64,000 nucleotides of DNA from NCBI GenBank assembly GCA_965116335.1, contig OZ220677.1, positions 784,834 to 848,833 of the forward strand, in the 5' to 3' direction. Numbering within the stretch: the stretch's first letter is position 1; each line of letters begins with the position of its first letter. Shown here piece after piece: positions 46,210-54,739 of this stretch. The notes beneath the pieces were generated by a model. The model was not told the DNA's origin. It worked only from the letters and a program-made list of their open reading frames with translations, and did not search any database. A program made the position numbers and the translations under genes. The stretch comes from Arenicellales bacterium. Its GTDB lineage: Bacteria; Pseudomonadota; Gammaproteobacteria; Arenicellales; Poriferihabitantaceae.

Positions 46210-46297
46210 GGAGAGTTGGCAGAGCGGTCGAATGCGGCGGTCTTGAAAACCGTTGACTGTAACAGGTCCGGGGGTTCGAATCCCTCACTCTCCGCCA
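46210..46297 (+). tRNA. tRNA-Ser (UGA anticodon)
   Basis: GGAGAGTTGGCAGAGCGGTCGAATGCGGCGGTCTTGAAAACCGTTGACTGTAACAGGTCCGGGGGTTCGAATCCCTCACTCTCCGCCA has acceptor GGAGAGT/ACTCTCC, anticodon loop CTTGAAA, a long variable arm, T loop TTCGAAT and an encoded CCA. Confidence 0.93.
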
Positions 46298-46470
46298 TTA
46301 GGTGTTCAGAATCTGTATGGAATCTGGTCGGATGCGGTTGGTTTAATGTGATGCAAACGTTTGTCATCACCTGATGAAAAAGTTACTATACGCAATCATC
46401 ACATCGTCAATCTTGTGAGAAGATAAGATATGTGCAGTATCCATGTAACAATAATTGCGCGGGCAGTGAG

Positions 46471-47361
46471 ATGAGTAGCTCGCAGCCTGCGCTGAGCCCA
46501 AGTGAGGTGGACTTGACGTCGAAAGTCAAGCGGTTGCAGAGAGATGCTAAAGCACAAATCGTATGTCAAGACAATCTCAAGTTCATGCGTGGGTTACCAG
46601 GTGGGTCAATGAGCTTAATCGTGACCTCGCCACCTTACAATCTACGTAAAACCTATGAGACACGGCAGTCGCACGATAAATACATTGAGACTCAAGCATC
46701 CTGTATTGCGGAAGCTGTGCGTTTGCTTACGCCAAAAGGGGCAATTTGCTGGCAGGTGGGCAATTACGTTGACAACGGTGAAATCTATCCACTAGACATC
46801 TCGCTCTACCCGCTGTTCAAATACCACGGTTTGAAGCTTCGAAACCGTATTGTCTGGTCTTTTGGACACGGACTGCATTGCCAAAAACGTTTTTCCGGCC
46901 GATATGAAACTATATTGTGGTTCACGAAATCGGAGCAATATACCTTCAATCTTGACCCGGTCCGCATTCCTCCAAAATACCCAAACAAAAAATATTTCAA
47001 AGGACCAAACAAGGGCAAGCTATCCTGTAATCCTCTAGGGAAGAATCCGTCTGATGTCTGGGACATTCCTAATGTAAAATCCAATCATGTCGAGAAAACC
47101 GAGCACCCCTGCCAATTCCCTGTAGGTCTCGTCGAGCGCCTTGTGTTGGCACTGACTAACCCAGGCGAGAGCGTCCTAGACCCTTACCTCGGCGTTGGTT
47201 CTTCAGCTATCGCCGCCTTAAAACATGGTCGCCATGCCTTTGGTTGCGACCTGGATCGCCGCTACATCGAGATTGCTTGGGAGCGTATCCATCAGCTTCG
47301 CGCTGGGACGTTGCGTACGCGTCAGATGAACAAGCCCGTGTTCGATCCCTGCACAAAGTAG
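46471..47361 (+). CDS. site-specific DNA methyltransferase, beta-class N4-cytosine/N6-adenine type
   Basis: The catalytic motif IV (LIVTSPPYNL) precedes the AdoMet motif I (VLDPYLGVGSSAIAA), which is the beta permutation of the N6_N4_MTase family. Start set to ATG 46471 (MSSSQPAL). Confidence 0.88.
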   Translation: MSSSQPALSPSEVDLTSKVKRLQRDAKAQIVCQDNLKFMRGLPGGSMSLIVTSPPYNLRKTYETRQSHDKYIETQASCIAEAVRLLTPKGAICWQVGNYVDNGEIYPLDISLYPLFKYHGLKLRNRIVWSFGHGLHCQKRFSGRYETILWFTKSEQYTFNLDPVRIPPKYPNKKYFKGPNKGKLSCNPLGKNPSDVWDIPNVKSNHVEKTEHPCQFPVGLVERLVLALTNPGESVLDPYLGVGSSAIAALKHGRHAFGCDLDRRYIEIAWERIHQLRAGTLRTRQMNKPVFDPCTK

Positions 47362-47366
47362 AATCC

Positions 47367-47831
47367 GTGAAATTAGCATTTACCTACGATGATCATCATC
47401 GCGCGGGAGCTAAGTGGGAAGTACGTAATCTCAAGTACTGGCTGACAAATATCTTTGAAGCACCGGATATCCAAGTTGCGCGGCGCTGTACGCCGGCTAT
47501 ACGCGAGCACGTAGAGACTAAGTTTCTGAACGACGGTTGGGCACTCAACGTCGATCTCGACCAGTCGCATCGACTTAAAATCTTTGCCGAGAAAGACGGC
47601 TTCGCATTCCAACTGCAAACAGGAAATATGAGCCGTGCGCCGTATGACCTGCTTAAAATGCAGTATCTATTTCAAGGCCAACGTATAGATGCCGCTGCTC
47701 TAGCTCTTCCAACCAAAAGTGCTGCACGAAAGATCGGAGATAATATTGCTAATGCAGATCGCGTAATTAGTGAGTTGCAACTCTTCGAGCGAGTGCTTAC
47801 CGTTCCGATTCTTGTTGTTGCCTTTGAATGA
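47367..47831 (+). CDS. small BglII/BamHI-like restriction endonuclease-fold protein (putative R subunit; start uncertain)
   Basis: This is the in-frame part of ORF 47244..47831 downstream of the MTase stop. GTG 47367 is the first plausible start, giving 154 aa. The core EKDGFAFQLQTGNMSRAPYDLLKM resembles the D..(E/Q)xQ-(F/T)GN..(Y/R)DLxK block of BglII/BstYI/BamHI-type enzymes. Confidence 0.5.
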   Translation: MKLAFTYDDHHRAGAKWEVRNLKYWLTNIFEAPDIQVARRCTPAIREHVETKFLNDGWALNVDLDQSHRLKIFAEKDGFAFQLQTGNMSRAPYDLLKMQYLFQGQRIDAAALALPTKSAARKIGDNIANADRVISELQLFERVLTVPILVVAFE

Positions 47832-47846
47832 TGACGTAAAGATAAA

Positions 47847-49184
47847 ATGGCCTATAATTTTAGGATTACACCGCGTGCCGAACGCGAAGCTTTAATCAAT
47901 AGACGACTGGAAAGTTCCAGAGAATTCGGCGAGATTATCTACGATTTCCGGAGTGACAATTACACTCCCAAGGTAATTTCACTGCCCATAGGAATACCGG
48001 TCTACCGTATGGAGAACTGCCGCACGTTCACTGCCCAACAGAACGATATTGCCACCCAAAGTCTGGACAATGACTTCTTTGCAAAGGGACAGGAGTTCTC
48101 GACGGCCCAGCAAGCCCAACATGAAATCTTGTTTAAACTCGCCAAGCAGAGTACCGAATCGGTTACATCCATCTACGATGTTCTTGAGAAGGATGGACAG
48201 CGCGAACCAATTCTGATTACCAGCACTGGAGTTGTAGTCAACGGAAACCGCCGCCTCAGTGCAATGCGAGAATTAATGCGCCAAAAAGACGACTCTGTCG
48301 ATGAGCGATTCAGCCATATCCGTTGTGCAGTTTTGCCACCGGACATCACCCCTGACGAAGTCGATGATATCGAGGCCGATCTACAAGCTAGGCCACAAAC
48401 CAAACTGGACTATGATTGGATTGGTGATGCGCGTCTTATTAGTCGCCAGGTTAACAAAGGTCGTTCGACAAAGGAGGTAGCTGATCGACTTCGGCGTAGT
48501 AAAACCGAAATTGAAAATGTCTTGCAGTCACTCGATGAGGCCGACTTATATTTAACGGAATGGGTCGAGAAACCGAGAGAGTACCATCTCTTGAAAGACG
48601 GAGAGCAAATTTTCAGCGACATCCCTAAAAATATCGACAAGAAAGACCCACAACTTCAGGAAGCTAGTCGTGCTATCGCTTGGTCGATATATGAAAATCG
48701 CGACCGTGTCCCGGGACGTGTCTACAGTTTGAATGCGGCTTTTGGAAGACTCGCGCCGAAGGTGCTGGATATCATTGAAGACCGAATAGATATTGAGCAG
48801 GAGGACAAAGAACATTCGGATGATGAGGATGATTTTTCTATCGACATTGTGGGCGATATCGATGATAGTGGTAAGAATTATAAGCCGATCATTAACGCCC
48901 TCAAGAATGAGGTCACCAAAGACGATACTGTAAATGTACTTCTTGAAGCTTGCGAAACTGCTATCGAGTCTGCAAGAGGGGAAAGGAACGAAAAGGCTCC
49001 ATTAAAGACGCTCTCTCAAGTCCATGCAAGAATCATAGGAATAGATACAAATGCAGCAGGCCAGGACACATTATCCCCTATGCTAAAACAGATTGAGGCG
49101 ATCAGGATAGTTCTCAAAAAGATAGAAACGACTATTCAGATGCGTCAAGCCGGCGAGTCAGCGGGCGACAAATCTGATGAGTAG
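47847..49184 (+). CDS. ParB/sulfiredoxin-like N-terminal domain protein
   Basis: 445 aa with LPIGIPVYRMENCRT ... REPILITSTGVVVNGNRRLSAMREL (ParB GxxR box). It continues with a helical middle region and the acidic tract EQEDKEHSDDEDDFSIDIVGDIDD. Confidence 0.7.
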   Translation: MAYNFRITPRAEREALINRRLESSREFGEIIYDFRSDNYTPKVISLPIGIPVYRMENCRTFTAQQNDIATQSLDNDFFAKGQEFSTAQQAQHEILFKLAKQSTESVTSIYDVLEKDGQREPILITSTGVVVNGNRRLSAMRELMRQKDDSVDERFSHIRCAVLPPDITPDEVDDIEADLQARPQTKLDYDWIGDARLISRQVNKGRSTKEVADRLRRSKTEIENVLQSLDEADLYLTEWVEKPREYHLLKDGEQIFSDIPKNIDKKDPQLQEASRAIAWSIYENRDRVPGRVYSLNAAFGRLAPKVLDIIEDRIDIEQEDKEHSDDEDDFSIDIVGDIDDSGKNYKPIINALKNEVTKDDTVNVLLEACETAIESARGERNEKAPLKTLSQVHARIIGIDTNAAGQDTLSPMLKQIEAIRIVLKKIETTIQMRQAGESAGDKSDE

Positions 49185-51102
49185 CGCCCAAATGCGCAAA
49201 GCGCCGACCTCTGTTGATATTTATTTCAGTCACGATAATACGGGTACACTTGCTATACCGGCAGAAGAACTTGAAACGGCGATCTGGTCACGTCTGAAGC
49301 TATCAATCCGATCAAAAAAACTTCATTACACGATATCAGGAAGCGAAATAAATCTTTCATGGACTGACACCCTCGGCTTAGTGCGCGAATTTGGTAGCCG
49401 AGATACTCAGCAAAACTTGAATTTCCGGTTTAGGCCAAAAGCAGAAGCAGCCGAGAAACTCCGAGCGTTTGCCACAGAACTTAGGAAAACGCGCACGCAG
49501 CGCTCCACACTTACAACCAGCATCCTCCCTGAGGAAATACAGACACGTCTGAAGGATGCAGGATTTTCCAGGCGCGAATTGAAGCCTTTCCAACTTCGGG
49601 ATTTGTCTCATATTCTCTCACTTAGTAACGGGGCAAATTTCTCTGTCCCGGGAGCTGGCAAGACTACTGTGACGTTTGCCCTTCATACACTTACGTACAA
49701 GCCGAACCAATTTTTTATTGTCGTTGCACCAAAGTCTGCATTCCAAGCATGGATTGATGTTGTTGGTGAATGCATGGATGATAACGCTCTGGACAGCCAC
49801 ACTGAATCATTCACTATTTTGGATGGTAGTGACGAGGACACAAGTTTGGCCTTAACTTCTGGAGCTAGTCGGTTTGTTATTTCTTATGACCTCATGGTGC
49901 GCCAGCAGGGAGTACTGACATCACATTTTGCAGTGACGCCAACCCATCTCGTCCTCGATGAGTCTCACCGCATGAAAGCGGGCTGGCAGTCGCAACGCGG
50001 CGCCTTCCTTCTCAGCATCGCCAGCCTCCTGGTCCGGCGGGATATATTGACCGGAACACCTATGCCCCAAGCGGCATCAGACATTGAGTCTCAGTTGGAT
50101 TTCCTCTGGCCCGGCCACGGTCTCGGTTTTGAAGTGGTGAGGGGCACGTCTCCACGGCGGGTCCTGGGGAACCTTTATGTGCGCACTACAAAAAAGGAAC
50201 TCGAACTTCCAAGAGCTGAACGACACTTCATTGATGTGGCGATGGAACGGGGTCAATTGGCACTGTACTCGATCGTTCGTAATGAGTTCCTACGTAATTA
50301 TTCCAAGCATATTTCGCGTGGTATGGGTGATGGGCAATTACTAAAAGCCCGCCGCTCCGTCATGCGTCTCCTGCAGTTATCGGTTAATCCTGTCCTCGCG
50401 TTAAGTGCTATGGCATATGACGATGTGAAGATAGATTCAGCAATAATCGAACAAGTACTTGAGGAAGGTCATTCGGCAAAGATGCGAGCCGTGATGGATC
50501 ACGCGCGCAAACTGGCAAATCAGGGCAACAAATCCGTAATTTGGACGATTTTCACCGACACGATTCACAGCCTCTTTTCGTCGCTTGCAGATCTAAATCC
50601 AGTCTATATTCATGGCGGTGTTTCGTCTGGATCTGCTAGTGATCCTGAGAGTCGTGAAGGTAAAATCCGCCGCTTTCATAAAGATAGTAGTTGTTTTGTC
50701 CTTATCGCAAACCCAGCAACTGCGGGTGAAGGCATTAGTCTCCACAAAGTCTGCCATAACGCGATTTATGCCGACAGGAGTTACGTTTCTACACACTACC
50801 TCCAATCCATCGACCGAATTCACCGGCTTGGCCTCATGCAGAACCAGGAAACACATATACATATCTATCGTTCTAAAGCTCCGCCAGTTATTGGAAGTAT
50901 CGATATGTCTGTGAGCCGAAGGCTGGTCGCAAAAATCCGCAACATGCAGATATTGCTCGACGATCCTGATCTCCATGAAATTGCCTTCGACGAGGAGCAA
51001 GTTGGCGATCCGATTGATTATGACATCGAACTACAAGACCTTATTGATCTTGTTGCCGAACTCGAAGGAACTGCCGGAGACGCACAGTTGGAGGATATAT
51101 GA
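49177..51102 (+). CDS. SNF2/Rad54-family helicase (superfamily 2 translocase)
   Basis: 641 aa with motif I VPGAGKTT, motif II LVLDESHRMK, motif III LTGTPMPQ, and C-terminal motifs ATAGEGISLH and QSIDRIHRLG. It overlaps the upstream gene by 8 nt. Confidence 0.85.
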   Translation: MSSAQMRKAPTSVDIYFSHDNTGTLAIPAEELETAIWSRLKLSIRSKKLHYTISGSEINLSWTDTLGLVREFGSRDTQQNLNFRFRPKAEAAEKLRAFATELRKTRTQRSTLTTSILPEEIQTRLKDAGFSRRELKPFQLRDLSHILSLSNGANFSVPGAGKTTVTFALHTLTYKPNQFFIVVAPKSAFQAWIDVVGECMDDNALDSHTESFTILDGSDEDTSLALTSGASRFVISYDLMVRQQGVLTSHFAVTPTHLVLDESHRMKAGWQSQRGAFLLSIASLLVRRDILTGTPMPQAASDIESQLDFLWPGHGLGFEVVRGTSPRRVLGNLYVRTTKKELELPRAERHFIDVAMERGQLALYSIVRNEFLRNYSKHISRGMGDGQLLKARRSVMRLLQLSVNPVLALSAMAYDDVKIDSAIIEQVLEEGHSAKMRAVMDHARKLANQGNKSVIWTIFTDTIHSLFSSLADLNPVYIHGGVSSGSASDPESREGKIRRFHKDSSCFVLIANPATAGEGISLHKVCHNAIYADRSYVSTHYLQSIDRIHRLGLMQNQETHIHIYRSKAPPVIGSIDMSVSRRLVAKIRNMQILLDDPDLHEIAFDEEQVGDPIDYDIELQDLIDLVAELEGTAGDAQLEDI

Positions 51103-51932
51103 ATGCAGGGATATCTACCGAGCGTGTGTTCTCTTTATCTTGCTTCGAAGGTGTACGCCTGCTGCGATATTATGGAGAAATGCATCCTGAACTTAGTGTC
51201 GCCGAACTTATTGTACTAGTCGAACGTATTGAAGCGGACGGAGCTAGCCTCGATCTAAATGCTTCCGCTCATCTTGAACCTCTTGTCGAACATGATTGTT
51301 CGATGGAGGGCAAGGCGTTCTATCAAGCTTGCATCAAAGCAGTCTTGGTCAAGCACCAGCCGATATGGTCTAGATCCATGCGTTCGGGCCGTGGACGCTT
51401 CACTCGAACACTTAATGTAAATGAACAGGACATTTTTTCTGCTGCTGGTTTGACAGATAATCCTCCGCCGATTGAAGTAGTCCGGTGGTGGGATGATGTC
51501 TCTGGACATGCTCGATTGATAATCGATCAGGTAAAAATGGGGCAGGCTCGCGAAGCTGAACTCCTCACATTGGAGCATGAACGCAACAGGCTTGCCAGTA
51601 TATGTGTTGCGAAGGAACCGGAATGGCCGGGGCTTGATGACAACTACGCAGGATATGATGTGCTGTCTTATGATATAGGAGAATATGGTCTGGTCAATCG
51701 CATGATCGAAGTAAAGTCTACGGTTGCTTCTCCACTTCGCTTCTATGTGACACGCAACGAGTGGGAAACGGCCAAAGATGCCGCATCGGCTTACCTTTTC
51801 CACATCTGGGATATGAAACAGCAACCTCCGGTCCTGTACGTGAGGACAGTTAAAGATGTTGCCCCACACATTCCTATCGACAACGAGAAGGGAAAGTGGA
51901 GCACTACTGAAATTCTGATTGTGAGCTCCTAG
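51099..51932 (+). CDS. DUF3883 (NO VEIN C-terminal, restriction-endonuclease-like) domain protein
   Basis: 277 aa. The C-terminal AGYDVLSYDIGEYGLVNRMIEVKSTVASPLRFYVTRNEWETAKDAASAYLFHIW matches the DUF3883 pattern. A 4-nt ATGA overlap joins it to the helicase gene. Confidence 0.75.
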   Translation: MNAGISTERVFSLSCFEGVRLLRYYGEMHPELSVAELIVLVERIEADGASLDLNASAHLEPLVEHDCSMEGKAFYQACIKAVLVKHQPIWSRSMRSGRGRFTRTLNVNEQDIFSAAGLTDNPPPIEVVRWWDDVSGHARLIIDQVKMGQAREAELLTLEHERNRLASICVAKEPEWPGLDDNYAGYDVLSYDIGEYGLVNRMIEVKSTVASPLRFYVTRNEWETAKDAASAYLFHIWDMKQQPPVLYVRTVKDVAPHIPIDNEKGKWSTTEILIVSS

Positions 51933-51952
51933 TGATCCCTCCCCGTAATCTA

Positions 51953-53171
51953 GTGTCTCGTCATATTTCCTGTGTCGGATATAGTCGTTTTAGTTTGATG
52001 CGTGCGTCCTCAGTTGTGAACTGCCAATCCACCTGAGTCTGTAGGCGGTCCCGTGAGGCTTGCCAGGCAGCGACTTCACGTGCGAGTATATCCATACGGT
52101 CGATACGCCGATTCAGGCATTGGCGGTTCATGACGTTGAGTTCGATTTCAGCCACATTCAGCCAACTACCGTGCTTTGGGGTATAAACGAACTCGAATCG
52201 GTCCCATAGTGCCTTGGCTTGTGCCGGTGGGTAGGCTTCATAGAATGCACCGGGACGGTGGGTATTGAGATTGTCCATGACCAGGGTGATGCGGGTGGCA
52301 TCCCGATAGTGTGCGGCAATGTCGGAGAGGAACTGCGCCCAATCGGTTCGGGTTCTGCGTTCGGTCACTTGGGTCATCCGCTTGCCAGCCAAAGGTTCGG
52401 TGGCCATGAAGACATTGCAGGTTCCACAACGCTGGTACTCGTAGTCGTATCGGGCGGGCTGTCCCGGACCCATGGCAACCGGCGCACGAGTCTCCCGAAT
52501 CAATTGGCGCGGTGTCTCGTCCATGCACACCACCGGGAAAGCGGCATCGTAGGGACGCCGGTAAACATCCAGAACCTTTTCCATCGCGGCGACGAACTCG
52601 GCGTTGCCTTGTGGCGGAATCACCCACCCGACCCGCCGCCATGGCTTGAGTTCGTTTTTTTTAGAACCCGGCGCACGGTTTCATGGGACACCGCATCAAT
52701 GTAACCCAGTTCCACAACCCGGTCGGCCAAAAGCCGCAACGACCATTGCGCGTAACCCGCCGGAGCTTCACCACAGGCCAAAGCCACCAGACGCGCCTCG
52801 AATTCACCGTCAGCCTTACGAATATAGGTGAGCCTGCGCCCTTGGCGGCCTCCTAGCGCCGCATCCAGACCTTCTTCCACAAACCGCTTCTTCACTCGAC
52901 CCACCTTGCGCATGCTGATACGGAGTATGTCCGAAATGGCTTCCCCAGTGGAATGCCGATCATTGAACTCCCCTGCATCGCAGTTGAGCAGGATCAATGC
53001 ATTGATCACCTTTTGCGACCGATGCGAACCCTTGTTCGTGATACTCGTCAATTCATCCCGCTCCGCTTCGTCCAACGTCACCCTATAGCGTTTCATACAT
53101 TCAACCTCGTCTTAACAAGAAAACGAGGAATCTATCATACTATATCCGACATATCATGCATGACGGGACAC
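51953..53171 (-). mobile_element. IS630-family insertion sequence, copy 1 (1219 bp, TA-flanked)
   Basis: Terminal inverted repeats GTGTCTCGTCAT...TGTCGGATATAGT (left) and GTGTCCCGTCAT...TGTCGGATATAGT (right, reverse complement). TA lies on both flanks (51951-52 and 53172-73). I saw no difference from copy 2. Confidence 0.9.
51961..53096 (-). CDS. IS630-family transposase, two frames (OrfA 52620..53096 HTH, OrfB 51961..52623 DDE) bridged by an A8 slippery run
   Basis: OrfA ends ...RRVLKKTNSSHGGGSGG. Slipping -1 on the minus-strand A8 run (52655..52662) reads ...VLKKNELKPWRRVGWVIPPQGNAEF, the canonical IS630 LKPW..W.IPP junction. DDE blocks VCMDE, VMDNLNTH and LNVAEIE are present. Confidence 0.88.
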
Positions 53172-53188
53172 TAGTCGACCTGCCGTTT

Positions 53189-53215: not shown

Positions 53216-53339
53216 TGATGAAACAAAAACTCTACTCAGAAGAGCAGATAATAGCTAACTCTCCGCCACTACCCCTTTGGAATTTCTGCACCAGAGTCTC
53301 ATTGATTTGACCGGATAGAAAACGCTATAAAATCAGTAT

Positions 53340-53582
53340 ATGAACAAACCTGTCACTCCCGGCGAAATTCTCATTGCGGAATACCTTAAGCCCATGGGTA
53401 TTTCACAGACCGACATGGCTCGCGCCATCGGGGTTGCGCCGAAGACCCTGGCATCTACACTAGCATCCATCACCCTGCAACCGATTCAGGATGGGTATAT
53501 AATGCCCGGATGTCTGAAATTGAAACCACATTGTCAGGGGCGGAAGAACTTGAACTTCTGTTCAATTCTGGAGAGGGCGTGA
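53340..53582 (+). pseudogene. HigA-family antitoxin (XRE HTH) remnant
   Basis: The first ~37 codons ([37 protein letters not shown]) match the HigA N-terminus and HTH. The rest diverges into unrelated sequence that overlaps the next gene. Confidence 0.55.
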
Positions 53583-54739
53583 AGCCCCCGTGGTTTTCCG
53601 GAAGAAAAAAAGAGAAGGACTATTACAATAAAGCCATCCGAAGGCTGGTTACGGATAAACCGCCTGGCGCCAGCATTATTGTTTTTGGTCCGCGTGGGAA
53701 TGGCAAAACATCCCTACTTCGTCATTTGGAGTCGAAAACCAGGGAGGAATATGGTCAGAGCATAGACCTGTTATGGACAACTCCGGTGGATATTTCAAAC
53801 AGAAGCCAGTTAATGAGTCTGCTCGTTTCCGGTGTTGCCGAGAAGGGAATAAAAACCATGGTTAACGCCATCAGCAAACTGGTCAGGATAAGAGTGGAAC
53901 ATGACGCAGGTTTTATTGAAGCAGGTATCCCGGGCATCAAGGACAGAATATATACAAATGAAACCGAGATTTTGAGGGAACGATGCAGGCTGAAACCCTT
54001 TGTGTTGATGATTGATGAAGCGCATGAACTGGACCCGGAAGTGGCTAAAGGGCTGCTCAACGCCAGTCAGAATGTACGTGGCGAAGGATGCAAGTTTTTG
54101 CTTGTTTTGGCGGGAACGCCAAATATCAAAGTGACATTCAGCAAGGCCAGTTCAACTTTTTGGGATAAATGCGCCTGTTTTTCGTTGGGGAGATTATCGA
54201 ATCGGTTCGCTGTTGAAGCGCTTGGCAAACCATTGCTTGACCAGAAGATCAGTTTTACTCCAGATGTGGCAGAAGAAGTGGCTGTGGTGCGCGCGCAGGG
54301 TTATCCGGTATTTATTCAACAGTGGGGCGAAGCCCTCTCCCACAATCTAATCAAAACAGGAAGCAAAACCATTACCATGGATACTGTGATGGCAGTGGAA
54401 AAGGACGTGACCATGCAAAGAAATATGATCTATGAATCACGAAAAACGGAAATAAAGGAAGCTGGATTGTTACTCGTTGCCGAGGCTCTGGCTGCCACTT
54501 TTTCGCAACAGGAACAAATTCAGGTGATTGCAGCCGAAAAAATAATCGAAGATTTTTTGCTGAAAAATCCGTTGCCTGAAACTGTAAATGATCCGGTTCG
54601 GTATACTCTTGAAACCTTTAATCATACCGGATTCATCTGGCAAACAATTGGCGGAGAAAATAACGACATGGATTATTATGAACCCGGCATCCCCAGTTTA
54701 ATGTCGAATATATTGAAAAATAAAGTCGAGGGAGCTTGA
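53510..54739 (+). CDS. orphan AAA ATPase (Arch_ATPase / ORC-Cdc6-like P-loop protein)
   Basis: 409 aa with [18 protein letters not shown]...[19 protein letters not shown] (Walker A) and [11 protein letters not shown] (Walker B), followed by a helical C-terminal half. Confidence 0.75.

Follow-up and report, generated by a model that had tools for sequence, protein, structure and literature searches.

A conserved five-gene cassette joining a DNA methyltransferase and a degenerate BstYI-fold protein to a ParB-like/SNF2/DUF3883 triad: a putative restriction-modification-type defence system

Between positions 46471 and 51932 of a 64,000-nucleotide (nt) stretch of DNA from an Arenicellales bacterium (assembly GCA_965116335.1, contig OZ220677.1, positions 784,834 to 848,833; hereafter the window), five genes follow one another on the forward strand, coding in order for a DNA methyltransferase (MTase), a small protein resembling the restriction endonucleases (REases) BglII and BamHI, a ParB-like protein, an SNF2-family helicase and a DUF3883 protein. 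The five genes are read here, with a probability of about 0.6, as one self-contained, horizontally transferred defence system of the restriction-modification (R-M) type. Three features of the data carry this reading: the genes are passed on together, and no intact set has lost the MTase; all catalytic motifs are preserved in the SNF2 ATPase and the DUF3883 nuclease; and the small REase-like protein, probably a reader of DNA sequence, lacks both metal-binding carboxylates. The MTase is proposed to be the self-marking component of the system and the DUF3883 protein its effector nuclease, with the ParB-like, SNF2 and DUF3883 proteins referred to below as the triad.

Results and Discussion

The five genes form a conserved unit

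The initial annotation of the window, made by a model from the letters alone, placed the genes at distances of 5, 15, -8 and -4 nt on a single strand, and these values were recovered both from the open reading frame (ORF) listing and by reading the junctions. In the public gene call the helicase begins at the second ATG (49192), giving a gap of +7 rather than -8 nt, and the spacing is tight with either start. The helicase and DUF3883 genes meet in an ATGA start/stop overlap preceded by GGAGGA, and this overlap is found in most of the loci described below. A consensus scan also upholds the earlier statement that no obvious internal promoter or terminator is present: no terminator-like site lies between the five genes, the sole match (47224-47236) being weak and situated inside the MTase gene, and promoter-like matches are no commoner than in shuffled sequences (8 observed versus 9.7 +/- 3.1). 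One of the promoter-like matches, at 47831-47858, overlaps the start codon of the ParB-like gene and therefore cannot drive it. The same scan yielded a sigma-70-like pattern upstream of the MTase gene which is a candidate promoter for the operon (Table 1). Co-transcription of the five genes as a single operon is likely; the coupling does not depend on one shared transcript, however, as the MTase gene of some variants lies on the other strand. The packing of the genes is far beyond chance, as 43 independent genomes show the same gene order with almost the same spacing.

These genomes were identified by scanning one genome per species with an alignment of homologues of the 445-residue ParB-like protein, which gave 45 loci, 43 with upstream DNA and two ending at a contig edge. 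All 43 assessable loci carry the genes for the MTase, the REase-like protein, the ParB-like protein, the SNF2 helicase and the DUF3883 protein colinearly and with near-identical spacing. They are distributed over at least six phyla-level groups, among them the Alpha- and Gammaproteobacteria, Nitrospirae, Bacteroidota, Planctomycetota and Latescibacterota; no match was found in Escherichia coli genomes. No flanking ORF family is common to more than four of the 45 loci, so that the conserved unit consists of exactly these five genes. The pairwise distances of the five proteins are correlated (r = 0.56-0.97), and a Mantel test of the MTase and REase-like protein against the triad gave r = 0.81, a value exceeded in none of 2000 permutations. 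These correlated distances indicate that the set diverges as one unit and not by shuffling of the R-M pair.

A second sample was drawn from metagenomes. The family of the 445-residue protein comprises 1240 clusters at 50% identity among the 1.84 billion cluster representatives searched, and scanning of contigs with an alignment of 44 distant members returned 80 loci, whose ParB-like proteins share 30-50% identity with that of the window. Enough DNA was present on both sides for 34 of these loci to be fully assessed. The colinear five-gene set occurs in 29 of them, two (L101 and L111) contain all five genes with the MTase gene convergent at the far end, one (L096) has a divergent MTase and is missing the small protein, and the remaining two (L080 and L100) are decayed, with the MTase, ParB-like and helicase genes all broken. 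The MTase is kept in all 34, and also where it has been moved (L095, L096, L101, L111, L122). The linkage of MTase and triad proposed in the initial annotation was thus put to a search for triads without an MTase, and none was encountered among the 43 genome and 34 metagenome loci that could be assessed.

Variant and decayed forms of the cassette were also observed. In the decayed cassettes (L080/L100, L068-L070 and L042) the MTase is cut down to its last 136 residues and the ParB-like and helicase genes are split, the helicase of L042 being broken in two pieces. Cassette decay is joint, with several genes breaking together and not singly. Four-gene variants with an opposite-strand MTase of approximately 50% identity occur at L095, L096 and L122, of which L095 and L122 are on shorter contigs, and at L096 a gene coding for a GmrSD_N (DUF262) protein adjoins the cassette.

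Table 1. Features of the five-gene locus and its surroundings in the window
Feature	Coordinates	Strand	Evidence and remarks
tRNA-Ser(tga)	46210-46297	+	ARAGORN
Sigma-70-like promoter match, TTGTCA-17-TACTAT	46361-46389	+	Consensus scan, 9/12; ~80 nt upstream of MTase start
Beta-class N6/N4 DNA MTase, 296 aa	46471-47361	+	Pfam N6_N4_Mtase (PF01555) 7e-50; alternative GTG start at 46432
REase-fold protein, 154 aa	47367-47831	+	Endonuc-BglII 1.5e-5; GTG start
ParB/Srx-superfamily protein, 445 aa	47847-49184	+	Weak, converging matches
SNF2-family superfamily 2 (SF2) ATPase/translocase, 641 aa	49177-51102	+	Pfam SNF2-rel_dom 6.7e-11, Helicase_C 3.4e-6
DUF3883/NOV_C PD-(D/E)xK nuclease, 277 aa	51099-51932	+	Pfam NOV_C 2e-14
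Imperfect direct repeat of tRNA-Ser 3' end	53250-53271	+	Repeat search; 18/22 identical to 46279-46300

The methyltransferase

Aside from its Pfam assignment, the MTase matches the PADLOC model MTase_II (2e-78), and its best match in the PDB is M.RsrI (6e-36). Across 44 loci, 128 of its 296 residues are at least 97% conserved, and the conserved motifs comprise motif IV (S53-P-P-Y56) and motif I (D237-P-Y-x-G-x-G-S244). As in type II R-M systems, an intact cognate enzyme is encoded beside an endonuclease-type gene, here 5 nt away. The SPPY sequence is the usual motif IV of N4-cytosine MTases, including the partners of BamHI and BglII, and suggests that the modified base is N4-methylcytosine.

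The small protein is a degenerate member of the BstYI/BamHI/BglII fold

The domain calls of the initial annotation were reproduced with Pfam for the MTase, SNF2 and DUF3883 proteins, while the BglII match of the 154-residue protein falls just short, scoring 25.3 bits against a cut-off of 26. The fold is clear from the AlphaFold2 model of this protein (pLDDT 93.9, pTM 0.89, 49 homologues), for which all 16 significant Foldseek matches in the PDB are to BstYI, BamHI, OkrAI or BglII (TM 0.66-0.82, E 1e-9 to 8e-6). Homologues are labelled BglII/BstYI family restriction endonucleases by NCBI. In profile alignments, the invariant QLQTGN segment falls on E128-V-Q130 of BstYI and E111-F-E113 of BamHI, so that Q82 and Q84 sit on BstYI E128/Q130 and BamHI E111/E113, with V72/F73 on BstYI D119. 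Position 82 is glutamine in 94 and histidine in 20 of 114 copies, position 84 is glutamine in all 114 and position 73 is phenylalanine, threonine or serine, while three further, more distant cassettes have a cysteine at position 82. The aspartate and the glutamate of the metal-binding D...E-x-(Q/E/K) signature of the BamHI/BglII/BstYI family are absent from all 114 copies. The base-contacting loop is retained, N87 and S89 corresponding to N116 and S118 of BamHI within a QTGN/S recognition loop.

A control was provided by stand-alone pairs of MTase and REase without the triad, found by scanning viral contigs with the MTase alignment and present on four of them (L149, L153, L161 and L173). All four of these relatives have E-x-Q at the aligned positions and are encoded by longer ORFs (212-314 residues), and two read kaDykk..vqvEVQFGN, which is the D-x9-E-x-Q signature of BglII and BstYI. 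The cassette protein, which is 50-70 residues shorter than active family members, appears from this comparison to be a shortened derivative of an active enzyme in which both metal ligands have been lost. Its length is fixed at 154 residues in more than 580 clusters, and its mean pairwise distance is 0.30 versus 0.33-0.43 in the triad proteins. This greater conservation argues that it is a DNA-binding reader under purifying selection and not a decaying gene. The protein is probably a non-cutting, sequence-specific DNA reader, and the "small nuclease" of the initial annotation is better described in these terms, since the catalytic residues are replaced in every copy. A role as a C-protein-like controller was also considered and rejected, as the protein has a full REase fold and no helix-turn-helix (HTH).

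The same residues bear on whether the MTase and the small protein could instead be an active type II R-M pair accompanied by an accessory helicase-nuclease. The small protein would then cut by means of an unconventional residue or one supplied in trans, and the triad would process or degrade DNA after the first cut or guard against anti-restriction. Its fold is that of real type II enzymes, as the NCBI names of its homologues reflect, and relocation of the active site is known among REases, some of which (the Cfr10I/NgoMIV group) supply an acidic residue from elsewhere. Yet both carboxylates are replaced in each of the 114 copies, whereas the nearest stand-alone relatives keep D-x9-E-x-Q, and BamHI no longer cleaves when equivalent substitutions are made at E111 and D94. 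The reduced length of the protein also counts against cutting, as does the fact that the pair never occurs without the triad among the 43 genome and 34 metagenome loci, the sole exception being a truncated phage remnant. Such an arrangement is considered rather unlikely. The missing carboxylates and their retention in the stand-alone relatives similarly disfavour the plain type II pair beside an unrelated triad that the initial annotation had named as the alternative to its own proposal.

The SNF2 motor, the DUF3883 nuclease and the ParB-like protein

The SNF2 protein retains its motifs at 97% conservation or more, namely the Walker A sequence G159-A-G-K-T-T164, D261-E-x-H264 and the motif VI residues Q543...R547..R550. 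Its PADLOC matches, to ZorD, DpdE and DrmD, are partial only. NOV_C is matched in all 26 members of the DUF3883 protein family that were compared, and D187...E204-V-K206 is invariant. The N-terminal regions of the SNF2 protein (~130 residues) and the DUF3883 protein (~150 residues) have no match in Pfam.

For the 445-residue protein, weak but consistent evidence points to membership of the ParB superfamily. Three regions can be distinguished, an N-terminal domain with an invariant GNRR, a central ParB/KorB-like HTH and a C-terminal helical region. Residues G133-N-R-R136 (in VVNGNRRL), E176, Q180 and W191 show no variation among the 44 distant homologues, and VVNGNRRL corresponds to the arginine motif of the GxxR/GERR type that follows a beta-strand in ParB/Srx proteins. 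The protein alone has no significant match in Pfam, NCBIfam or PADLOC. The only Pfam family matched by many members is ddrB-ParB (seven of 21 close and 26 of 44 distant homologues), the best match having an E-value of 1.8e-5 and a score of 24.5 bits, under the cut-off of 27.6. In tblastn searches, plasmid genes annotated as ParB/RepB/Spo0J or as ParB N-terminal domain proteins were recovered (E 4e-12 to 2e-14), while phmmer and hmmsearch against PDB sequences gave nothing significant. An AlphaFold2 model from 21 sequences is poor (pLDDT 57.6, below 50 in the N-terminal 160 residues); Spo0J, ParB and KorB are enriched among its Foldseek matches, with probabilities of up to 0.97 and E-values above 0.4. 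A role as a nucleoside triphosphate (NTP)-dependent DNA-binding adaptor or clamp is proposed for this protein. The initial annotation had pointed to the frequent fusion of ParB-like domains to MTases of this class as an argument for functional coupling; such fusions are established in the literature (PMC5512222), but the argument is one of analogy and was not what decided the linkage.

ParB proteins act classically in partition and SNF2 proteins remodel protein-DNA complexes, and the cassette occurs in small islands and on plasmids. A ParB-like protein together with a motor of the chromatin-remodeller type could accordingly be pictured as serving a mobile element in DNA maintenance, partition or epigenetic regulation, with no part in defence. 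No ParA is encoded in the cassette or in conserved flanks, however, the partner of the ParB-like protein being always the SNF2 helicase, and a partition function was rejected for this reason. The cassette is also mostly chromosomal, an intact PD-(D/E)xK nuclease is always present, known defence genes are found as neighbours, and phages carry the MTase alone, as would be expected of an anti-restriction function. A purpose other than defence is very improbable in the light of these observations.

Association with defence genes and phages

Some of the loci adjoin genes of the Qat, retron, AbiE, type IV restriction or GmrSD systems, and integrases, transposases and relaxases are likewise found near some loci. 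Relatives of the MTase are encoded on 185 viral contigs, with 45-72% identity where the MTase is alone. Of the 81 contigs examined (L133-L211), 66 carry the MTase alone, eight the full cassette in predicted viral or prophage sequences and four a longer, intact BstYI-like endonuclease. Retention of the MTase alone by phages would be expected where methylation shields DNA against the other components. On one phage-like contig from IMG/VR (L051, 7114-8315; also L052 and L190), an MTase of 71% identity is followed by a stump of the reader ending at codon 104; this remnant abuts the gene for the terminase large subunit, and a Holliday-junction resolvase, a sliding clamp and a helicase are also encoded. 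The presence of the reader stump in a phage-like contig indicates that the MTase was captured from a cassette, and it looks like a captured anti-restriction methyltransferase.

Distant triads, other methyltransferases and points against a single system

More distant triads are found on plasmids of Rhizobium ruizarguesonis (L214, pRL11), Mesorhizobium mediterraneum (L215), Azospirillum (L216) and Kozakia baliensis (L217/L219), where a gene for a protein of 280-320 residues is followed by those for the ParB-like, SNF2 and DUF3883 proteins. Compared with the proteins of the window, the SNF2 helicases are 32% identical (E 2e-80) and the ParB-like proteins 30% identical (E 9e-22). A C5 MTase of the Dcm type and a Vsr protein are encoded 1-4 kb from each of these triads. 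The upstream proteins of 280-320 residues are homologous (29%, E 9e-23) to the protein encoded directly after the dcm gene on the Rhizobium plasmid; where the Dcm-linked copy has AIELKG, the triad-linked copies have (I/V)IQKG in all four cases. Loss of the glutamate from an REase-like protein on coupling to the triad seems to have happened here a second time, independently. Among still more distant pairs of ParB-like and SNF2 genes, that of Priestia megaterium p1 (L222) codes for a helicase with a fused phospholipase D (PLD) family nuclease, and a divergent Dcm and a Sau3AI-like endonuclease are encoded next to it.

Several observations weigh against the interpretation of the five genes as a single methylation-gated system. 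In L095, L096 and L122 the MTase and the triad are present and a homologue of the reader is absent, so that the reader can be dispensed with, and methylation must be sensed by other means at these loci. Loss of the motif is no proof of lost activity, which leaves the inactivity of the reader likely, and the assignment of the 445-residue protein to ParB depends on sub-threshold profile matches and a low-confidence model, which makes it weak. The upstream protein of the distant plasmid triads has no Pfam or PDB match, and its REase fold is putative. At two of the distant loci, those of Mesorhizobium and Kozakia, a gene for a GIY-YIG nuclease adjoins along with Dcm, and on Enterococcus faecium p1818-a (L220) a pair of ParB-like and SNF2 genes follows a type III Mod-Res operon; these modules stand beside seemingly complete R-M systems, so that the triad or pair could be an accessory of an active R-M system, as in the active-pair alternative set out above, to which they lend support. 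No MTase motif was detected within 6-7 kb of the very distant ParB-SNF2 pairs of Enterococcus faecalis (L221) and Streptomyces (L218). In 852 kb of host DNA around the cassettes, the palindromic hexamers AGATCT and GGATCC have observed/expected ratios of 0.55 and 0.64, but most palindromes are also depleted in this sample, for which there was no cassette-free control.

The two pairs with no detectable MTase nearby also bear on a further explanation, in which two independent systems merely travel together. One would be an ordinary R-M pair, perhaps in decay, and the other a stand-alone effector resembling a split HmaA and working independently of methylation. HmaA itself, a fusion of SNF2 and NOV_C, defends against phage T4 by means of a required nickase activity, and does so alone, without HmaB or HmaC (PMC11232893), and defence genes cluster in islands for non-functional reasons too. 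Hitch-hiking nevertheless sits poorly with total co-occurrence across several phyla, at ParB identities down to ~30% and amid unrelated flanks, with translational coupling and strong co-divergence, and with retention of the MTase even when it has been relocated. The association moreover persists in the distant clade where the MTase has been swapped for a C5 enzyme, and the strong purifying selection on the reader shows that it is not decaying. Independent assortment of this kind is regarded as a distinctly unlikely explanation.

A proposed mechanism

From these comparisons we infer the following order of events for a single five-gene defence system. The MTase would mark the host copies of a short recognition sequence, which is probably a GATC-containing palindrome like the sites of BamHI, BglII and BstYI. 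At sites of this sequence that lack methylation, such as those of invading phage or plasmid DNA, the presumably dead REase homologue would bind, and it would then recruit or license the ParB-like protein and the SNF2 motor. The motor would translocate on DNA with the use of ATP, carrying along the DUF3883 nuclease, which would nick or cut the DNA. For the ParB-like protein, which has the invariant, putatively nucleotide-binding GNRR motif and a ParB-type HTH, a role as NTP-gated clamp or adaptor between reader and motor is proposed; this is the least supported step of the scheme.

More tentatively, the cassette may represent a class of R-M system that has not previously been recognised, in which a fossil type II REase serves as a methylation-sensitive address label and a ParB-like, nucleotide-gated clamp couples this label to an SNF2 motor and a separate DUF3883 nuclease. 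The core of ParB-like protein, SNF2 motor and nuclease would on this proposal be a portable "restriction engine" which has been plugged into beta-class N4/N6, C5 and type III Mod-Res modification systems, and which has twice independently been paired with an REase homologue devoid of the catalytic glutamate. This wider proposal is possible, and is put forward with some reserve.

Comparison with known systems

Among the systems described so far, Hma comes closest. It is the type 1 form of the DUF499-centred systems related to bacteriophage exclusion (BREX), termed BR, in which HmaA combines SNF2 and NOV_C, HmaB is a DUF1156 N6-adenine MTase and HmaC is a DUF499 ATPase (PMC11232893, PMC12839542, PMC3710099). 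An R-M-like logic has been attributed to the DUF499 BREX-related systems, with the MTase as the protecting component and the SNF2-nuclease as effector (PMC12839542). The cassette likewise has an SNF2 and DUF3883/NOV_C PD-(D/E)xK effector together with a DNA MTase, and its predicted logic is R-M-like. It differs from Hma in that the motor and nuclease are the products of two overlapping, translationally coupled genes and not a fusion, in its beta-class N6/N4 MTase (PF01555, RsrI-like, with SPPY), which is unrelated to DUF1156, and in the addition of the ParB-like protein and the presumably dead BstYI-fold protein. Neither DUF1156 nor DUF499 was found among the five proteins with Pfam (nor DUF499 with PADLOC), and no PADLOC Hma model was matched at E < 0.01.

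The initial annotation likened the operon to BREX and to the defence island system associated with restriction-modification (DISARM). The likeness holds at the level of logic, as these are multi-gene operons in which an MTase marks self and helicase/nuclease proteins act on unmarked DNA, but no protein that defines either system is present. The SNF2 protein has weak, partial similarity to DrmD and BrxHII, confined to the generic C-terminal lobe of the helicase. The DrmA/DrmB (DUF1998) core of DISARM is absent, with only partial DrmD/DrmA matches in the helicase C-lobe (E 7e-5 to 3e-3), and PglZ, BrxC, BrxA and BrxB of BREX are absent, PglZ and BrxC being unmatched by all five proteins in Pfam and PADLOC.

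With the type II systems of BamHI, BglII and BstYI, the cassette shares the fold and the recognition-loop residues of the small protein, the layout of modification gene before restriction gene (5 nt after a beta-class MTase) and the existence of stand-alone pairs among its relatives. In contrast to these systems, the catalytic aspartate and glutamate are replaced, the protein is only 154 residues long and a self-sufficient two-gene unit was never found in the 43 and 34 loci. The resemblance to the ATP-dependent type I and type III R-M systems, whose recognition and nuclease-motor subunits are separate, lies in a proposed sharing of tasks among a reader of sequence, an MTase, a motor of the SF2 type and a PD-(D/E)xK nuclease which would act away from the site, and in the distant ParB-SNF2 pair appended to a type III Mod-Res operon. 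The cassette has no homologue of HsdS/HsdR or Res, however, its motor is of the SNF2 type, and recognition would fall to a type II REase fossil in place of a subunit bearing a target recognition domain.

The ParB-like protein is reminiscent of the ParB proteins of biological conflict systems (DndB, GmrS/DUF262, Osa, DdrB-like ParB and the ParB-MTase fusions; PMC5512222, PMC10853773), with which it shares a ParB/Srx domain with a conserved arginine motif, a modification/restriction context and the lack of a ParA. It nonetheless constitutes a distinct family of ~440 residues with its own HTH and C-terminal helical region, is always accompanied by an SNF2 helicase, and matches ddrB-ParB only below threshold. 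PADLOC v2 recognises the MTase alone, and none of the five proteins has a family-level or anti-phage model in NCBIfam (June 2026). Full-text literature searches found the Hma and BR systems and no description of this five-gene set. The cassette is thus read as belonging among the multi-gene, methylation-gated restriction systems, its gene set being itself undescribed.

The island and neighbouring elements

The GC content is 47-49% over 46-52 kb of the window, compared with 53-55% in the flanks. Within this low-GC stretch, the 3' end of the tRNA-Ser(tga) gene and its downstream repeat bracket the cassette together with an insertion sequence (IS) element, and the bracketed stretch looks like a small tRNA-integrated island from which the integrase is gone. 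The tRNA-Ser(tga) gene is the probable integration site of this island of ~7 kb, and the repeat at its far end (Table 1) is possibly the scar of the distal attachment site, although a short repeat in two copies could be due to chance. The IS element (51950-53174, reverse strand) is of the IS630 family and has terminal inverted repeats of 36 nt that are 81% complementary. It contains two transposase ORFs that overlap (52620-53096 and 51961-52623), and its insertion point lies 18 nt past the stop codon of the DUF3883 gene.

Just outside the putative island repeat, on the forward strand (53340-54739), the N-terminus of a HigA-like antitoxin (39 residues matched, TIGR02607, 8.5e-11) runs into a 409-residue AAA/Orc1-like P-loop ATPase, which has a weak match (4e-5, far below cut-off) to an NCBIfam "anti-phage protein". 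The stretch may represent another small defence or toxin-antitoxin module.

Upstream of the MTase, k-mer and palindrome enrichment yielded only a clade-specific ACCAGATATCGT-like motif, which lies ~100 nt upstream of the MTase start in loci of the Rhodobacterales type (L006, L008-L010, L012 and L015). The motif, a possible promoter element or operator, has no clear counterpart in the window.

Significance

If the proposed interpretation is true, a widespread gene set is at present mis-annotated as an orphan or ordinary type II MTase with hypothetical proteins. Its reach is considerable: over 1200 clusters at 50% identity make up the ParB-like family, and the complete set of five genes is spread over six or more phyla-level groups and is also found in predicted prophages. 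Being self-contained and only 5.5 kb long, the cassette makes the proposed steps directly testable. It would provide a case in which a type II REase has lost its catalytic function and come to serve an ATP-driven machine as its recognition subunit, ParB-type nucleotide switches would gain a role in immunity, and a modular motor-nuclease core would have become attached to three different kinds of MTase.

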